From positions 3,008,001 through 3,072,000 of the forward strand of contig OZ219747.1 in assembly GCA_964291265.2 (NCBI GenBank): a stretch of 64,000 nt of DNA, given 5' to 3'. The position numbers and the translations under genes are program-made. The DNA comes from Alphaproteobacteria bacterium. Lineage in GTDB: Bacteria; Pseudomonadota; Alphaproteobacteria; SP197. Positions within the stretch are counted from its first letter, which is position 1; each line of letters begins with the position of its first letter. The notes beneath the pieces were generated by a model, which searched no databases, was not told the DNA's origin, and saw only the letters and a list, made by a program, of their open reading frames with translations. This document shows positions 23,105-31,899 of this stretch, piece after piece.

Positions 23105-23427
23105 GATCAAGGAAGCATACCTACACCACCACACTCCGTCCGTCATCCACAGGTTCTGTCATGTTCGCCCGCCAGTCATGATGCCCTCCGCAATCGGCAG
23201 GTCGGCAGGGCGAGGATGCGTTCGCCGAAGGGAAGCGCCGCTTCTCCGTCGAGGAGTGGGCCGAAGATGAGGGCGGTCACGTTCAAGCGCACCGGCATCA
23301 ATGCCGGGCGGGGGGCGCGGCAAGGCGGGAATCGGTCAGACGAAGATCTGGCACCTGGGCAGTTGCGGGAAAGTACTTGCTCTTTTCTCGTCGGGAAAAC
23401 TTGGTATTCATGGTCACTGGAATATGC

Positions 23428-23934
23428 ATGGTAGAAGGGTTGAACGTGGAACAAGGGATTCGTGTTGCAGATGAAGTCTGGATCGTGGCGGCATCACTGC
23501 ACCGCGATCATCCGAACCGTTCGGACTTCACTATCGGCGAAATCATGGCACGGGCCGAGTCCGAGAACGTGACGGGGAGACAGCCGCTGCGTCCGGGGGG
23601 CAGAGTGCACGCCTGTCTTCACTGCGTTGCCAACAGGCCTCCCAATCCAGGCCGGTATCGCATGCTCGTCGAAACGAAGCATGGGCGGCGGCGGCTGTTC
23701 CGGCCGGGCGACCCGTGCCACCCGCTTCGAACTGCGGGAAAGGACATGCCCAGGCGCCATGAGATCCCGAGCCGTTTTCACGACCTCATCGATTGGTACG
23801 TCGCGGAGTACGCAGGAGGAGCGTCGGACGATCCCGAAGATCCCGTCCTGTTGCTGCGAGGGCTCGGCGCGGAGATCTGGGCGGACGAGGACGCGGATGA
23901 GTATGTCCGCCGCCAGCGGTCCAGCTGGCCATGA
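23428..23934 (+). CDS. Putative antitoxin with an uncharacterised N-terminal domain
   Basis: Directly upstream of the PIN gene. The C-terminal LRGLGAEIWADEDADEYVRRQRSSW resembles VapB-type neutralising tails. Confidence 0.6.
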   Translation: MVEGLNVEQGIRVADEVWIVAASLHRDHPNRSDFTIGEIMARAESENVTGRQPLRPGGRVHACLHCVANRPPNPGRYRMLVETKHGRRRLFRPGDPCHPLRTAGKDMPRRHEIPSRFHDLIDWYVAEYAGGASDDPEDPVLLLRGLGAEIWADEDADEYVRRQRSSWP

Positions 23935-23938
23935 GCAG

Positions 23939-24055
23939 GTCAGCGTTCGGTCCAGGGGTGATGATGATGACGGTGGCGACTCCGCACGGTCCCGGGTTTC
24001 GCCCGCATTCGATCAGTTCCACGATGCTCCTGTCACTGCGTGACCGAACGCTCAA
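23939..24055. mobile_element. MITE with IS66-type ends, copy 3, with 8-bp TSD ATGAGCAG
   Basis: GTCAGCGTTCGGTC ... GACCGAACGCTCAA, with ATGAGCAG at 23931-23938 and 24056-24063. Confidence 0.85.
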
Positions 24056-24478
24056 ATGAGCAGGATATTCCGGGACACCAACCTGTTCGTGTATCTCCTT
24101 GAGGACAAGGGCGAACTGACCGAGAGAGTGTTGCTTTTGCGTGAGCGAATGGTCGAACGCGACGACGAACTGCTGACTTCGGCACTGACCCTCGGCGAAC
24201 TCCTCATCAAGCCCATGGAGGCGGACAACGACTTTCTCGTACGCCGCTATGAGCAAGCGATCGCGGCCGCCGCTGCCGTGATACCGTTTGACCGGACGGC
24301 GGCCCCCGTGTTCGCAGCCATTCGCCGAGATCGGACGATCCGGCCTCCGGATGCGATCCAGCTTGCATGCGCCTCGGTGGCGGGCGTCGACCTGTTCATC
24401 ACGAACGACAGACGTCTCAGCCGGAGAGTGGTCCCCGGCATCCAGTTCATTCAATCGCTCGAAGTTGTGGCCCTTTGA
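24056..24478 (+). CDS. vapC: PIN-domain (VapC-like) toxin
   Basis: Motifs DTNLFVY, TLGELL, PDAIQLA and FITNDRRL. Confidence 0.85.
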   Translation: MSRIFRDTNLFVYLLEDKGELTERVLLLRERMVERDDELLTSALTLGELLIKPMEADNDFLVRRYEQAIAAAAAVIPFDRTAAPVFAAIRRDRTIRPPDAIQLACASVAGVDLFITNDRRLSRRVVPGIQFIQSLEVVAL

Positions 24479-24584
24479 CCTCGGGAAGGCCCGCGATGAG
24501 CAAGGACTCTCACGTTCCAGATTGAAGCGTTCGCGATACGAACGCGGATTCGATCGTGGCGCGACGAGGTGATCCAGGCGCTCA

Positions 24585-24697
24585 CCCGGGCGCCGGGTGA
24601 GCGCAGCCTCTCCGGTGTGCGCACCCGGGCCATGGTCATGAAGGCCAGCATGATGAGGATGACCGAGAGACCGTAGAACCCCGCAGGCAACACGCAA
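24585..24697 (-). pseudogene. Second fragment of the putative transposase at 29794-31899
   Basis: Near-identical to 31076-31188 (LPAGFYGLS.ILIMLAFMTMARVRTPERLR). Confidence 0.75.
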
Positions 24698-24852
24698 GCA
24701 AGGAAGACGACACCTTTGGTGGAGGCGAACAGCACCATGGCCACCCGGGCGCTGCGTGACGGATCGATGAGGAAGAAGACGGAGTCGGCGCTGACCGCGG
24801 TCCACAGCCAGGCCTTCTGCGAGCGCCCCGAGGCCTTGAGGGACTGGATGCG
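24698..24852 (-). pseudogene. IS66 transposase, segment downstream of the intron insertion (truncated)
   Basis: RIQSLKASGRSQKAWLWTAVSADSVFFLIDPSRS joins in frame to ...HGDETSW at 28738. Confidence 0.8.
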
Positions 24853-24987
24853 GTGTGCCAGCATCCATGTTTCCCGGCAAGGTTTTTTGCGGGTGTCCGT
24901 GGTGATGTTTTCTGTGGTTGTCCACAGCGGTCTGGGGTTCCGCCTTGTCGATGTTCTTGTCCTGCGAGCGAGGCGACATGCAGCTTG

Positions 24988-25258
24988 TGGTCCCGGCGGC
25001 ATGGGCGGGTTGTTGTCCATTGATCATGGTAACGTTACCGGCGAGTGCGGTCGCTTTGCCGCCGGCGTTCCCGGACATGGTAACGTTACCGTGTTTGATG
25101 AAGTTCCAGGTGTCATGCGTCCCGGCGGCATGAGCGAGTTGCCGTCCATTGATCACGGTAACGTTACCGATGAGCGCGGCCACCTTGCCGCCCAGCGTCC
25201 CCGGGCATGGTAACGTTACCGTGATCAAGGGGGTTCCAGGTGTCATGTGTCCCGTCCG
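24988..25258. repeat. Imperfect ~129-bp tandem duplication containing four GGTAACGTTACC palindromes
   Basis: Palindromes start at 25028, 25079, 25157 and 25209 (spacing 51/78/52). TTCCAGGTGTCATG occurs twice. Confidence 0.85.
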
Positions 25259-25533
25259 TAGCCGCGCGGCGGTTCGATCTCCTCGAGAGCCTCGATGTCG
25301 GCCTCGACGATGATCTGCAGACGTTCTCCGTAAGCCGTGTCGCGCAGGGAGTCGGGAAGACTGTCGAGACAGTCTCGATAATGCTCCTGCAATGCACCGA
25401 GCTCGGCCACCGCATCGCGCCAGCGTTGCGCACGGGAACGACGGTCGCAGGGCTTTCGGTGGTGGACGGCAGGGATGCCGGCCTTGCGGCGTTCCCGATA
25501 ACGGCGCTGCTTCTCGGCAGGGGTGAGGGCCAT
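25243..25533 (-). CDS. 96-aa hypothetical passenger protein of IS110
   Basis: AAGGAG RBS, with the ATG about 30 bp after the transposase stop. Basic N-terminus MALTPAEKQRRYRERRK and an acidic, probably helical C-terminus. Confidence 0.75.
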   Translation of the reverse strand: MALTPAEKQRRYRERRKAGIPAVHHRKPCDRRSRAQRWRDAVAELGALQEHYRDCLDSLPDSLRDTAYGERLQIIVEADIEALEEIEPPRGYGRDT

Positions 25534-25562
25534 GAGGGTGTCTCCTTCGCTCACTCGCAAGG

Positions 25563-26715
<1,153 letters not shown>

Positions 26716-27177
26716 CTCTGCAACCATAGACCGGGCCCTCTCCCACAGTCGGGGTTGTCCACATTTTCCCGCCGCCAACCGCTGTGGATGATTGCATCAT
26801 CACGGGGACAAAACCTGGTCATATAAGGCGAACTGGCGGAAGGTAGGGGGTGAAAGTCCCCTGAAACGAAGGAGTAACCAAACCACGTTTCTCCGCGAGC
26901 CGTGCGTCGGTTCCCGCGAGGGGGCAGGCGAAGCGTCGGTAGCGGTACGGATGGGCAGGGCTAATGAGCACCGAAAAGTCCGTTGTTCGGGGTGCCGAGG
27001 CTTTCGCATCGGTCGAAGGCAACATCGCAGGCATCGATTTGGTGAGATGTCGGCGAGCCCCGCGGTGTCGGAGAACCCATGCACGTCCGCACGCCTTCTG
27101 TTGGGACCCTGGGAGGTCTTCGAACTATCCCGCCTGTCGTGGCGGGACCGTGTAGGGAAAGGAGAAAGCCGAAGCCT

Positions 27178-28665
27178 ATGAGGAACGGTTTGAAGAAGTC
27201 GGATGGGGCCGTAAGACCGGTGAAGGCGGCGAACAAGGGAGCGTCAGCTTCTGCGGAGTCGCTGGAGGAAAGGGCCTCAACCAAGGGGAATCCGGGACGC
27301 CAAAGCACGCACCGAACGCAGTGTCGGGCAAGTGTGCCACAGGCGGCGGACCGGATACGGGAAGCTGCAGAGAGGAACCCGAAGGAGCGTCTCACTGCAC
27401 TCTTCCATCACATTACGCCGGACGCGCTCCGGGCGGCCTACTTCGGTTTGAAGAAGGAAGCCTCGGCAGGTGTCGACGGCGTGACGTGGGCGGCGTATGG
27501 CGAGGGTCTGGACGAGCGCTTGCTTGATCTGCACTCGCGCCTGCATCGTGGGGGAGCGTACCGGGCGCCGCCGGTTCGGCGGGTTGAGATACCCAAGCCG
27601 GACGGCGGGACACGACCGCTCGGGATTGCCGCACTGGAGGACAAGATCGTCCAGAAGGCGGTTGTGGATGTGATCCTGACACCGATTTATGAGGTGGAGT
27701 TCCTTGGCTTCAGCTACGGGTTCCGACCGGGCCGAGGGGCGCATGACGCTCTCGACGCCCTGGCGTTCGGGATCGAGCGGCGCAAGGTCAACTGGATAGT
27801 CGACGCGGACATTCAGGGGTACTTCGACACAATCCCGAGGGATTGGTTGATCAAGTTCCTGGAGCATCGCATTGGCGACAGGCGGGTGATCCGTCTGATC
27901 CGCAAGTGGCTGAACGCTGGCGTCATGACCGACGGATCATGGAGCGACACCGGTGCGGGCACGCCTCAGGGCGCCATTGTCAGCCCCTGCCTGGCGAACG
28001 TGTTTCTGCACTACGTGCTCGATCTGTGGTTTCACAAGGCATGGCGTCCGAAGGTTCCGAACGGTAAAGCGATCATTGTCCGCTACGCGGACGATATTGT
28101 GGTCGGGTTCCAGCATAAGCGGGATGCGGAGACATACCTTCGCGACGTTCGGGAGAGGCTGGACCGCTTTGGTCTCACCCTTCACCCGGACAAGACCCGT
28201 CTCGTTGAGTTTGGACGGTTTGCCAAGGCGAACCGGCGATCTCGCGGGGCGGGCAGGCCGGAGACGTTCGACTTCCTGGGCTTCACGCACTTCTGCACGG
28301 AGACCCGGAGAGGACGCTTCAGGCTTGGTCGCAAGCCGGTCGCAAAACGGGTCGCAAGGACCCTGGCGCGCATCGAGGAGGTGCTTCGCAATCGACGGCA
28401 TCACGACATATGGGAGGTCGGCATGTGGCTTGGGCGAGTTGTCAATGGCTGGTCCAACTACTTCGCCGTTCCGGGGTCGACCCGATGGCTGCGCACGTTC
28501 CGCCAAAGGCTGCAACGCCTATGGCTGCGAGCGATCCGCCGCCGCTCCCAGCGCCACTGCTTTGACTGGAAGCGATTGGAGCGCATGACCGAGCTTCTTT
28601 GGCCGCGCGTCTCCATCCGCCACCCATGGCCGGACCAGCGGTTTACCGTCAAGCACCCGAGGTAG
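27178..28665 (+). CDS. ltrA: Group II intron reverse transcriptase/maturase (no obvious endonuclease domain)
   Basis: AGVDG, IPKPDGGTRPLGI, SYGFRPGR, DADIQGYFD, GTPQG, YADD and FDFLGF motifs; X domain. Confidence 0.95.
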   Translation: MRNGLKKSDGAVRPVKAANKGASASAESLEERASTKGNPGRQSTHRTQCRASVPQAADRIREAAERNPKERLTALFHHITPDALRAAYFGLKKEASAGVDGVTWAAYGEGLDERLLDLHSRLHRGGAYRAPPVRRVEIPKPDGGTRPLGIAALEDKIVQKAVVDVILTPIYEVEFLGFSYGFRPGRGAHDALDALAFGIERRKVNWIVDADIQGYFDTIPRDWLIKFLEHRIGDRRVIRLIRKWLNAGVMTDGSWSDTGAGTPQGAIVSPCLANVFLHYVLDLWFHKAWRPKVPNGKAIIVRYADDIVVGFQHKRDAETYLRDVRERLDRFGLTLHPDKTRLVEFGRFAKANRRSRGAGRPETFDFLGFTHFCTETRRGRFRLGRKPVAKRVARTLARIEEVLRNRRHHDIWEVGMWLGRVVNGWSNYFAVPGSTRWLRTFRQRLQRLWLRAIRRRSQRHCFDWKRLERMTELLWPRVSIRHPWPDQRFTVKHPR

Positions 28666-28737
28666 GAGCCGGATGGATTAACGTCCATGTCCGGATCTGT
28701 GCGGGGGGTGCGCAGCAATGCGCATCCCTACCGCGAC

Positions 28738-29793
28738 CCAGCTGGTCTCGTCGCCGTGGCGCACCGTCAGCCGGTTCTGATGATCGAGGATGGCCTGCGC
28801 GAGAGGCGCGAACATCGGCGTCATCTTCTTCATGCCGCCAGCGATCGTTCCCGGCGCCATCGGCAGTCCCTGGTCTTCCAGCCATCGCGAGACCCGGCGC
28901 AGGGGACGCAAGCAGGCGAAGCGCTCATAGAGCACGCATGCCCAGACACTGTTGCCGTAGGGGGTATTCGCAAACAGGCGCAAAGGTGGCGGCGCGATGA
29001 TCTCCGCAGGCGCCGACGAACACTGACAACCACGGCGCCAACGCCCACGCTCAATCCGCCGGACATGAGCCTTGACATGGACCTCCATGATCGAGGTCTC
29101 GTGGCTGCCGTTGGCCACATAGGGCTCGCCGCAACACGGGCACGTGCGCTGCGATGCCGGTGGATCATGGCGCTCGTGCTTCTCCTCGAGCTTCGGACGC
29201 GGGGTGCGCCCATGGCCGCTCTTGCCAGGTTGCTGACCCCGCTTGTTCCCGGTGCCTGCCTTCTTCTTCCGCTTCTCGCTCTTCGACCCGAAGCGCGCCT
29301 TCGCGTGCTTTTCACGCGTCTCGCGCAGCTTCGACAACTCGTTCTCCTGTTCAGCGTTCTTGAGCTTCAGAGCGTCCCTTTCCCGCTCCAGCGCCTCCGC
29401 CAGGGCCTGTACCCGCTTCACCTCCCGGCGAGCCTTCTTGAGCTGATCACGAGTGCGGTCGAGATGAAACTTGAATGTGCCCGCACGGGCACGGGCAGCA
29501 ATCTCCGCACAGCGCAGGTCACGCATACGCGCTTCCGCCGCATCCGCACGAACCCGCTCCGCCTCGTAGAGCGCCTGCCAGTCAGGCGCCTCGCATGACA
29601 AGGCCGCTGACGCCCGACACAAGGCCGTCACCACCTCCCGTCAGCTGCTGTGTCGCTCCGCGCGTCTCGGCAAAAGTCTTCATGGCCTCGACCATAATCG
29701 AGACCAAACGAGTTTACCAGCACTTTCTCAGACAATAGTCAGCAAGCCCCAAATCAACCAAAATCAGCCATCACCGCACGGCCGAACGCTTAC
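28738..29793 (-). mobile_element. IS66 family element: left end and 5' part of the transposase
   Basis: Terminus GTAAGCGTTCGG at 29793 (minus). Coiled coil, FGSKSEK, RGQQPGKSGHGR, CPCCG finger and HGDETSW. Confidence 0.85.
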
Positions 29794-31899
29794 GTTGGCC
29801 AGGCCGAGGATGTTGACCCTGAGGATGCCGCTTTCGTGGTCCGGCTCGATGCTGGCATCGGCGGTCATCAGGGCGGCGATGAGGGTGCGGACTGTGTTGG
29901 GTCGCGCCTTTCCCCGGATCACGGGGGCATCATGCGGGTTTCGGCGCGATAGCAGATCATGCGGACGAGATCGATGAGGAGGCGTTGCGTTCGTGGCAGG
30001 GTGTCGGGCTTGTCGCTGTCGGCAAGTTCGCCGACACGGACATGGCTGGCCAGGGTTGAGCGGCGCTCCTTGAGTTCGGCGAGGTCCTCCTCGATGGCGC
30101 CGACCTCGGCAGCGAGAGCGTCTGTTGTCTTGCCCTTGGCGGTGGCCCTGGCGACCCGCACATGCAGCTGAGCGAGGCGCGCCTGGTTCTTCTGGATGGT
30201 CTTGTCCACGGTCCTCATGTGCGGATTGACCACGAGGGTGTCGTCATCGAGCGTCTCGAAGCCATGCTCCGGCAGAGCGTCAAGGTTCCAGGCGTCACGC
30301 ATGTACTTGAAGAAGTTCTCCTGAACCCAGCGCGAGAACATGGCCTGAGGCGACCTCTTCCATGGCCATCTGCGGGATGGGTGGTGATGAGCGGCACCTG
30401 GCGGCCATTGTCCAGGAGGCGGCGGATCTGGCGGACCTTGTGGCCCTTGGCCAGAGTGACCTTCTTCTCGGCCAGTCGGACCTTTGTCGAGGTGATCCCC
30501 GCCGGCCCATGAAGTGGCACCGTGCATTCCGTGAAGTCCTCGACTGGCCAGTCCTTGCCCTTGAAGTTCTTGTGCCAGGTGATGACCGCGATGCCGCGGC
30601 GCGCCAGACGGTGGAACAGGTCCGGGCTCCAGCCCTCGCGGTCGAAGACCAGGGTGACCGCCGGCTGGCCGCCGCGAAGAAGGTCGCCGGCATCCCCGGT
30701 GACGACCCCCAGGGTCTCCAGCTCAGGCACCACGTCATGCTCCAGGGCCCGCACCATCTTGCTGTCGAGATCCTTGTGGAGACATACCAGAGGGGCGCCC
30801 GAAAGAGCGTTGATCCAATAGCTTGCCGTGGCCGGAAGGCAGAGCTTCTGGCGCTTGACGAAGTGCTTCGGCACCTTGCCCTTGCCGTGGTAGACCTTGA
30901 CATGGCCGTCCACCGCCAGCGTCATCCAGTCCTGCGAGCCGTCCTCGAGCCATGACCGCCCGAGGACCCGTTGCCATGCTTCCACCGTCTCGGGAGAAGC
31001 GGCAAGGGCTGCCACCTTCCTCCTTGAGGGTCTTGACCTCCGGGCATCGGTCGAGACCCAGCAGAAGACCCCATTCCCCGGGCGCCTGGTAGCGCAGCCT
31101 CTCCGGCGTGCGCACCCGGGCCATGGTCATGAAGGCCAGCATGATGAGGATGGTCGAAAGACCATAGAACCCCGCAGGCAGACGCAAGACGCGGTGCGCC
31201 GTCTCGAGGAGACCCTCCCGCAGCAGCATCGGCAGGGCCCGCAAGGACCCCGCCTCTCTCGACCGCAAGGGCCTTCGTGTCGAAGCGGGGAGAGGCTTCC
31301 TCCATCATCCCCGTGGAAGCCAGGAGGCGCCCCTCGACATCGTGGCAGGCCCGTGCAATCGCCGGACGCCGGGCCTCCTTCGAGCGTTGCGAGCGTTCGC
31401 TCGCCATGGCGTCCTCGGCCACCGGCTCCTTGATCGGAGCCTTGATGATGCCCGACCGCAGGTTCTCGTTGAAGGTGCTGTGCGACACGCCCAGTGCACG
31501 GGCACAGGCGCGTCCGCTGGTGCCCGAGGCCAGCATCGTCTCGGCGCGCCGCGCCATCGCCGGGGAGATCACCGTGCGTCTGCGCGGCCGCTGCGGTGCA
31601 CCGAAAGCCGTCTCGCCCTTGGTCTCCAGGAGCTTCGCCGCACGGTAGACGGTGGGCCGCGAGACATCGAAGGCCCTGGCCAGGTCGACACAGCGCACGC
31701 CGGCGACCGTGAAGAACCTGGCGATGCGCAGGGCCTGGGCACGGGTGTCATGGGCGGCATGGCAGTCGAAGGGCTCGAGATTGGAGAAGTACCACGCCTG
31801 ATCACCGATGACGGCCCATGAGAAGGACGAGGCGATGGGTGTGGCATGGGCTCCCTGGAGCGGTAGGGAGGGTGTCATGGCGAGCCAAAAGTGGAACAT
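29794..31899 (-). pseudogene. Large putative DDE transposase (HTH + VDGHVKVYHG / FDREGW / RWVQENFFKY), frameshifted and cut by IS66
   Basis: Motifs are spread over several frames (30922-31899, 30735-31268, 30215-31015, 29919-30527). It ends abruptly at the IS66 terminus. Confidence 0.75.

Follow-up and report, generated by a model that had tools for sequence, protein, structure and literature searches.

A small gene with its own predicted binding site in an IS110-group element and behind unrelated transposases

The locus

Insertion sequences are usually assumed to carry movement functions alone. The window analysed here, a stretch of 64,000 nucleotides from an alphaproteobacterial genome (contig OZ219747.1, positions 3,008,001 to 3,072,000), contains an IS110-group element in which a second gene and a set of palindromes lie between the recombinase gene and the right end. 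The features are as follows, in window coordinates.

24853..24861, + strand: target flank, bases 1 to 9 of a group II intron; its last two bases (24860-24861, CT on the element strand) are the first core, and empty intron copies run on at 26828
24862..26825, - strand: complete IS110-group element, 1,964 bp, defined by four identical copies and empty sites
24862..25242, - strand: non-coding right end, 381 bp, with donor half-site at the tip, -35-like hexamer, DnaA-box-like 9-mer and palindromes
24875-24880: -35-like TTGCCG in the right end, putative promoter part
about 24990-25254: tandem duplication, period 129-130 bp, 84-85% identical
25028..25039: palindrome 4, GGTAACGTTACC, closest to the right end, predicted operator
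25079..25090: palindrome 3, GGTAACGTTACC, predicted operator, 51 bp from palindrome 4
25157..25168: palindrome 2, GGTAACGTTACC, predicted operator
25209..25220: palindrome 1, GGTAACGTTACC, predicted operator, right behind the small-gene stop and 52 bp from palindrome 2
25243..25533, - strand: passenger gene for a 96-aa protein of a family without a name, co-oriented with the recombinase
25542..25547, - strand: ribosome-binding site AAGGAG of the small gene, 8 nt ahead of its ATG, kept in relatives
25563..26510, - strand: IS110 DEDD recombinase, 315 aa, with DEDD_Tnp_IS110 and Transposase_20 domains (Pfam scores PF01548 E 4e-24, PF02371 E 2e-17)
26511..26825, - strand: left end, 315 bp, with predicted bridge RNA and two DnaA-box-like 9-mers
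about 26511-26590: donor-binding loop of the predicted bridge RNA
about 26595-26640: target-binding loop of the predicted bridge RNA (guide 26600-26634)
26826..28737, + strand: second core (26826-26827) and remainder of the interrupted group II intron (Rfam RF02005, E 5e-50)
27079-28665: reverse transcriptase gene of the interrupted intron (RVT_1 Pfam match)

Extent and surroundings of the element

The right end at 24862, 701 bp past the recombinase stop, was confirmed without reliance on the guide. In 29 empty intron 5′ ends of the same genome both flanks meet exactly at the 2-bp CT core, and the empty alleles of a second type of target likewise close precisely at CT. The genome contains four copies of the element, identical over all 1,964 bp, three in introns (two of these having a larger flanking composite in common) and one in a different multicopy element. 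The empty sites at two targets and the four identical copies establish the element as 24862-26825 and the small gene and palindrome array as co-mobile with it. In the window it was inserted after base nine of the intron; the empty sites of the two different targets indicate that it inserts at a 2-nt core and leaves no longer duplication of the target. One sequencing run (X1) gave a contig joint and a loose end consistent with the intron/element boundary. In the contigs of three sequencing runs the empty intron joint was present and the circle junction absent, which is uninformative either way on circles.

A preliminary description of this DNA had placed the right end about 700 bp past the transposase stop and had noted, within that stretch, a co-oriented 96-aa ORF with a strong ribosome-binding site and a duplication of about 129 bp with four perfect palindromes. 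Each of these was borne out.

The element is one layer in a nest of mobile DNA (24451-31899), in which IS110 lies in a group II intron, itself in an IS66-like fragment, adjoining pieces of a Transposase_29 gene. A multicopy element with the start of a DNA-methyltransferase-like gene (label by eye) is found at G000:C2:1751127 and 12 similar places, two on C1; it carries a 55-bp remnant of the IS110 left end, and one of its alleles houses the fourth full IS110 copy. Nearby (23377-24478), a PIN-domain gene (24056-24478) is preceded by a 185-aa ORF with no Pfam match; the two may be a toxin-antitoxin pair interrupted near 23940-24050 by a short repeated sequence.

Bridge RNA, guides and circle junction

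Apart from its right end, the element is of ordinary IS621-type design. Like the IS621/IS110 bridge-RNA elements it has a DEDD recombinase, a CT core and a bridge RNA, here predicted, in the left end. As in IS621, the target and donor loops fit the flanks and the ends. A circle junction, if formed, may also assemble a promoter. The predicted bridge RNA corresponds to a left-end fold with z -6.1 and two guide loops. The donor loop pairs with the element's ends and is constant among relatives; the target loop differs from one relative to the next, each fitting its own flanks. In the window element the guide fits a multicopy group II intron at its 5′ end; of the 32 places in the genome that match an 11-nt target pattern, 27 are intron starts. 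Three of the four element copies sit at intron 5′ ends. Intron targeting is lineage-specific, close relatives carrying other guides. A literature search on IS110 elements with group II introns and bridge RNA, most subscription papers being outside its scope, returned nothing relevant. Membership of the window element in IS1111 was considered and rejected, as its guides lie in the left end, whereas IS1111 elements have sub-terminal inverted repeats and a guide RNA in the right end.

A -35-like and a -10-like hexamer would stand 17 nt apart across the predicted circle junction. In the IS110 family the junction promoter is presumed to drive both the recombinase and the non-coding RNA (PMC11187229). 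A promoter scan called no sigma-70 site within the element. Three 9-mers resembling the DnaA-box consensus lie at -65, +36 and +64 around the junction (about 24920-24930 and 26755-26790). They are kept in 4/4 relatives printed, and 0/300 random 200-bp windows hold three. DnaA would presumably be their ligand; the two left-end 9-mers may be mere RNA stem arms.

Durrant et al. (2024; PMC11208160) describe the left end of IS110-group elements as long and the right end as short, exceptions being the 26 of over 350 elements that have two long non-coding regions (PMC11187229). A short right end with the recombinase as sole gene is typical of IS621-like elements; the window element has 381 bp of non-coding right end and the 96-aa gene. 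It differs from IS621 in the 701 bp that separate the recombinase stop from the right end and in the conserved gene and palindromes found there. Canonical IS110 elements measure 1.0-1.6 kb, and larger, cargo-bearing IS110 loci are known (Hu et al., 2026; 10.64898/2026.08.14.744561). Like these, the window element has an extra gene inside the ends of an enlarged element. Unlike their cargo, which is described as adaptive (resistance, defence) and plasmid-like, it has one small, clade-inherited gene that is common to other IS families. The terms “regulator”, “palindrom” and “hypothetical” are absent from the main text of Hu et al. (2026).

The palindromes

Chance would give 0.73 occurrences of GGTAACGTTACC per window even with 2 mismatches allowed. 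All 23 exact occurrences in the 4.8-Mb genome fall in the four element copies or in two decayed remnants. Each unit of the duplication has two inverted arms of 22-23 nt, about 40 nt apart, with a palindrome ending each arm. Close IS110 relatives carry either a lone repeat unit, in which about 52 bp separate the two sites, or just one site; wherever sites are paired in the close relatives aligned they are 51-52 bp apart, about five helical turns. A four-site array as a family trait was rejected on these grounds; it is a recent doubling of a two-site unit and not a requirement.

The right end folds beyond shuffled sequences (z -4.7) through the inverted arms, a property that would suit palindromes serving a host factor or RNA hairpins, such as a terminator or processing site, with no connection to the small protein. 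This explanation is highly improbable. The terminator scan called no U-tract terminator at the arms, many relatives have a single site with non-complementary halves (for example, C in one and T in the other), and the site tracks the gene across phyla and is rare elsewhere.

The small protein

The small gene begins 30 bp past the recombinase stop, and no gene lies between it and the right end in the window element. Modelling of the protein alone, which the preliminary description had proposed, gave a basic helix and a helical domain without a fold match. In the AlphaFold2 model (mean pLDDT 87.9, pTM 0.58) a basic helix (residues 5-17) is followed by an extended linker and a helical domain (34-85); the basic helix is free, the 16-residue linker behind it is non-helical, and there is no beta strand. 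The conserved tail is PPRGYGRD. Most of the invariant residues are located beyond the basic helix, among them R37, W38, L45, P60 and the P-x-G-x-G-R-D tail, a distribution that hints at a second function.

A Foldseek search of the model against PDB and BFVD gave no match at E 0.001. Pfam, NCBIfam, PADLOC and PDB sequences yielded no convincing family, PHROGs only weak matches to families of unknown function, and the ESM Atlas only clusters named “hypothetical protein”. Comparisons with the window sequences put dN/dS at 0.10-0.24 for the small gene, over 9 pairs, and at 0.32-0.37 for the recombinase, over 3; the small gene is under purifying selection inside IS110 copies.

Distribution among mobile elements

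Relatives of the 96-aa protein number 1,415 at 90% clustering and 2,274 clusters at 50%, of which 933 match at E 1e-10; none of the members examined has a functional name. The family is patchy: among 400 further genomes from the class of the source genome, 3 have a homologue. The source genome has 37 further full-length homologues (76-79% identity), mostly in one IS21-family element of 5,326 bp that is present in 30 near-full copies (one at G000:C2, about 1167150-1172480). Its genes are, in order, a Cys-rich first ORF, istA, istB, an ORF that looks primase-like when judged by eye, the homologue of the small gene and a partial duplicate, and the homologue's site is widened by 2 bp. This element, with its altered site, far outnumbers IS110 in copies.

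Two sets of loci were examined, both made up of best-scoring matches and not a census. Among the 68 of 80 metagenome loci that have an upstream ORF to test, the upstream co-oriented neighbour is IstB in 41, an IS110-family recombinase in 16, IS3-type in 2, IS66 in 1 and HNH in 1, with no label in 7. The 79 genome loci, labelled by ourselves and with redundancy kept, comprise IS110 family (21), IS21 (18), plasmid-like DNA (9), IS66 (5), IS481-like (5), IS3 (4) and large serine recombinases (2), with no label in 15. In 60/68 metagenome loci the small gene has the same position and orientation behind these unrelated transposases. Terminal inverted repeats flank it on both sides in 14 of 17 IS21 loci tested, where it is the last gene before the terminal repeat; in L029, L030 and L046 the repeat comes at most about 70 bp past its stop. 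In the IS21 ends inspected, nothing toxin-like is encoded behind it, and in the window element and these three loci no toxin gene of the type II toxin-antitoxin kind adjoins it.

The IS110-family partner recombinases form about five groups with mutual identity of 45% or less. On a gene tree of 94 rows the IS110 label changes 11 times (6 forced by supported branches) and the IS21 label 12 times (8 forced), in a tree that has few columns and is unrooted. Since the tree is unrooted, a plasmid origin of the module is not established. The family is not specific to IS110, which is a minority partner, and the object of interest is a cross-family module rather than the long right end as such. The earlier suggestion of an accessory module particular to bridge systems is not supported: the same unit is commoner behind IS21 and occurs with IS3, IS66, serine recombinases and plasmid-like DNA. 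Of the two co-occurrences that it proposed to check, the one with the palindrome is strong, homologues being strongly enriched beside it, but IS110 is a minority partner.

With one soil-type homologue as query, tblastn gave no match in the PLSDB plasmids; tblastn against the INPHARED phages also gave none. One genome (G275, L181-L204) has 12 or more divergent homologues; in several the C-terminus is extended and an exact site is missing. Long ORFs around homologues there and among the 50%-cluster matches looked like open upstream frames or read-through rather than true fusions.

In an IS1111-type lineage (by eye) the order is recombinase, site, small gene, a long conserved non-coding region and a sub-terminal repeat. 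The non-coding region downstream of the small gene, some 330 bp in these loci (L049, L062, L069, L077, L079, L124, L126, L136, L141, L142, L150, L159, L173), is a candidate guide RNA behind the site.

Inheritance within IS110

Five genomes chosen for having the small gene supplied 20 close recombinase loci (62-83% identity), 8 of which were the seeds. The gene or a remnant is present in 11 of the 12 non-seed loci, the twelfth being a recombinase fragment without its 3′ end. More distant IS110s (38-47% identity) were taken from six other genomes, 15 loci in all, one of which was dropped because its downstream DNA was too short; gene and site are absent in the 14/14 informative loci. The preliminary description had asked whether close relatives would lack the block. 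They keep it, but distant IS110s are without it. A separate later insertion of gene and palindromes was rejected, as the ends are identical in the four copies and the block is common to relatives. It is likely that an IS110 ancestor captured a gene-plus-palindrome module.

The near-constant presence of the gene in close IS110s, together with the 51-52 bp spacing of paired sites in all close relatives aligned, would suit a factor for directionality or excision that is specific to IS110, or a protein with an architectural role that bends the right end for the recombinase. Such a role is very unlikely, though a little less so than the host-factor reading of the palindromes. Partners of the protein are unrelated to one another: IS110-family in 16 of the 68 metagenome loci against 41 for IS21, with the repeated changes of the IS110 label on the tree. 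Distant IS110s do without gene and site, the sites lie at least 166 bp from the crossover, and the directionality of IS621 is explained by recombinase-RNA geometry alone (PMC13626964).

Broken or truncated copies of the small gene do occur (L214, L218, L222, and remnants in the source genome), and capture of cargo by IS110 is common (10.64898/2026.08.14.744561), as would be expected of a neutral hitch-hiker, a plasmid repressor gene and operator picked up by chance and useless to the element. The dN/dS values in IS110 copies, the constant position and orientation behind unrelated transposases, and the conservation of the sites alongside the gene make this as improbable as the host-factor reading.

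Linkage of gene and site

Reading of the flanks gave the family pattern GTnACGTnAC. In the 64 dereplicated loci that served to define the motif an exact match lies near the gene in 50, against about 1% expected, where near means within 170 bp ahead of the basic region or 130 bp past the stop. In metagenome loci fetched later (77 of the 80, three having been dropped because the basic region was not parsed) 69 have an exact match, upstream in all, again with about 1% expected. The end of the site lies 10-22 nt ahead of the start codon in 67/77 rows. The linkage spans records from Pseudomonadota, Acidobacteriota and Spirochaetota, and this spread over three phyla favours a self-encoded binder. 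In the window's clade, sites are mostly downstream only.

Two loci (L032/L033) form a tandem plasmid-like unit of 4.9 kb. Each unit has four exact sites, and two of these immediately precede genes: one lies between the -35- and -10-like hexamers of the small gene and the other ahead of the ribosome-binding site of another gene. The unit is a candidate regulon of the small protein. Other plasmid-like loci have a site on both sides of the gene. A scan of 216 kb of DNA ahead of the gene gave 37 near-matches and 2 exact sites, not above background, and no second operator near transposase promoters.

The small plasmid autorepressors CopG, KorA and ArdK combine a small protein with a palindromic operator at its own promoter. 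The present family resembles them in this, and in having several sites on small plasmid-like DNA. It is unlike them in that the model contains no beta strand and matches neither a helix-turn-helix nor a ribbon-helix-helix fold, and there is no family match.

The commonest site is GTTACGTAAC, and a common form of the basic region is N-A-E-R-Q-A-R-Y-R. Lysine goes with G..C site ends in 17/17 rows and arginine with C..G in 66/68 (9 of the 94 rows lack an exact site). At the variable base, N accompanies T/T in 21/26, D a G half in 14/14 and G a C half in 19/20. The covariation amounts to 1-2 independent pairs on supported branches, too few for a sign test to reach significance, and the impression that site variants track two residues of the basic helix is suggestive.

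The signature NxxAQxxFR of the eukaryotic bZIP protein Pap1 binds TTACGTAA (PMC7261193). A likeness to Pap1/Yap may be read in the common form N-x-x-R-Q-x-x-Y-R, which falls in the same register, in the GTTACGTAAC site, and in the variable base, which changes with whatever residue occupies the Asn position. Unlike Pap1/Yap, the family has no leucine zipper after the basic helix, and in the window protein the Asn is replaced by Pro. N stands there in 29/73 R-type rows, the rest having D, G or others. Pfam bZIP models matched none of 36 family members at E up to 10. The resemblance is one of register only and does not establish homology, and the protein is not classed as a bZIP.

No paper on the small-protein family or the palindrome was found in a literature search that excluded ISfinder and had most subscription papers outside its scope; searches on bacterial bZIP proteins in plasmids or mobile elements, on IS21 third-ORF repressors and on IS accessory regulators gave nothing relevant. 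Cargo in IS110 is already in print, and the small-gene family and its site were not found in the literature so covered.

Proposed role of the module

The 96-aa protein likely binds GTnACGTnAC as a repressor. The preliminary description had offered several roles for a palindrome-binding protein. A DNA-binding role is the best reading and a repressor is favoured among those roles; an excision or directionality factor is unlikely. The reading we prefer, tentatively and at a little under an even chance, is that of an IS621-type IS110 with a captured repressor and predicted operator that would damp transcription of the element.

The basic N-terminal helix would read each half-site, with two subunits on a palindrome. 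In most relatives the single site just ahead of the start codon would give autorepression, and in plasmid-like DNA the site occurs at several putative promoters, possibly reflecting the ancestral job. In the window clade the small gene would be translated from the recombinase transcript, with the sites behind the gene. On an excised circle the junction promoter would also make the small protein. Bound 166-358 bp upstream of the junction, the protein would form a roadblock or loop and limit further expression of bridge RNA and recombinase. This negative feedback could be extended if resident copies acted on new circles.

The captured-repressor reading is supported by co-mobility, purifying selection, the gene-site linkage, the place of the site just ahead of the start codon in most rows, the promoter-like setting of sites in the 4.9-kb plasmid-like unit, the suggestive covariation of site and basic-helix residues, the free basic helix in the model, and the position of site and gene in the IS1111-type lineage between the recombinase and the conserved non-coding region of the right end. 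Against it are the absence of a second site near transposase promoters, and the IS21 arrangement, in which the site would control the small gene alone. The nearest site also stands at a distance of about 150 bp from the -35-like hexamer, beyond the reach of simple promoter occlusion; the promoter scan called no sigma-70 site in the element, the IS21 homologue's site is widened by 2 bp, and most of the invariant residues lie outside the basic helix.

Several of these points would be accommodated if the palindrome set only the dose of the protein by autoregulation and the conserved C-terminal domain acted in trans on a target of the host or of a mobile element, for example as a helper or protector of circular transposition intermediates, or in interference against plasmids sharing the repressor. 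We regard this, the main rival reading, as rather unlikely. The invariant residues and tail outside the basic helix, transposase promoters without a second site, and the last place of the gene before the IS21 terminal repeat argue for it, and movement through circular intermediates is common to the main partners, IS21, IS3 and IS110/IS1111 (10.1101/2023.06.07.543989). However, the target is hypothetical, no toxin-like gene follows inside the IS21 ends inspected, and PADLOC, Pfam, NCBIfam and PHROGs offer no convincing family. The C-terminal domain may be just a dimerisation domain, and the paired sites behind the gene in the window clade are left unexplained.

The captured-repressor reading can be widened to a family of bacterial basic-helix binders, new to the literature, that would read an ACGT-core palindrome in the eukaryotic bZIP register through a residue-to-base code, be repeatedly recruited as a control unit by circle-forming elements, and gate guide-RNA transcription in IS1111-type elements, a protein-level control of bridge recombination of which the literature searches gave no example. 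This wider proposal is improbable, more so than action in trans.

Significance

The small gene with its own predicted site recurs in elements of the IS110, IS1111, IS21, IS3, IS66 and serine-recombinase kinds, which suggests a control layer that they have in common. The understanding of bridge recombination itself would be unchanged by the module. Bridge recombinases are current editing tools, and the module is a natural candidate for a tuner of guide-RNA and recombinase levels. The family would also be a compact case of variation in a protein-DNA code, and it may be a bacterial counterpart of the basic region of bZIP proteins.
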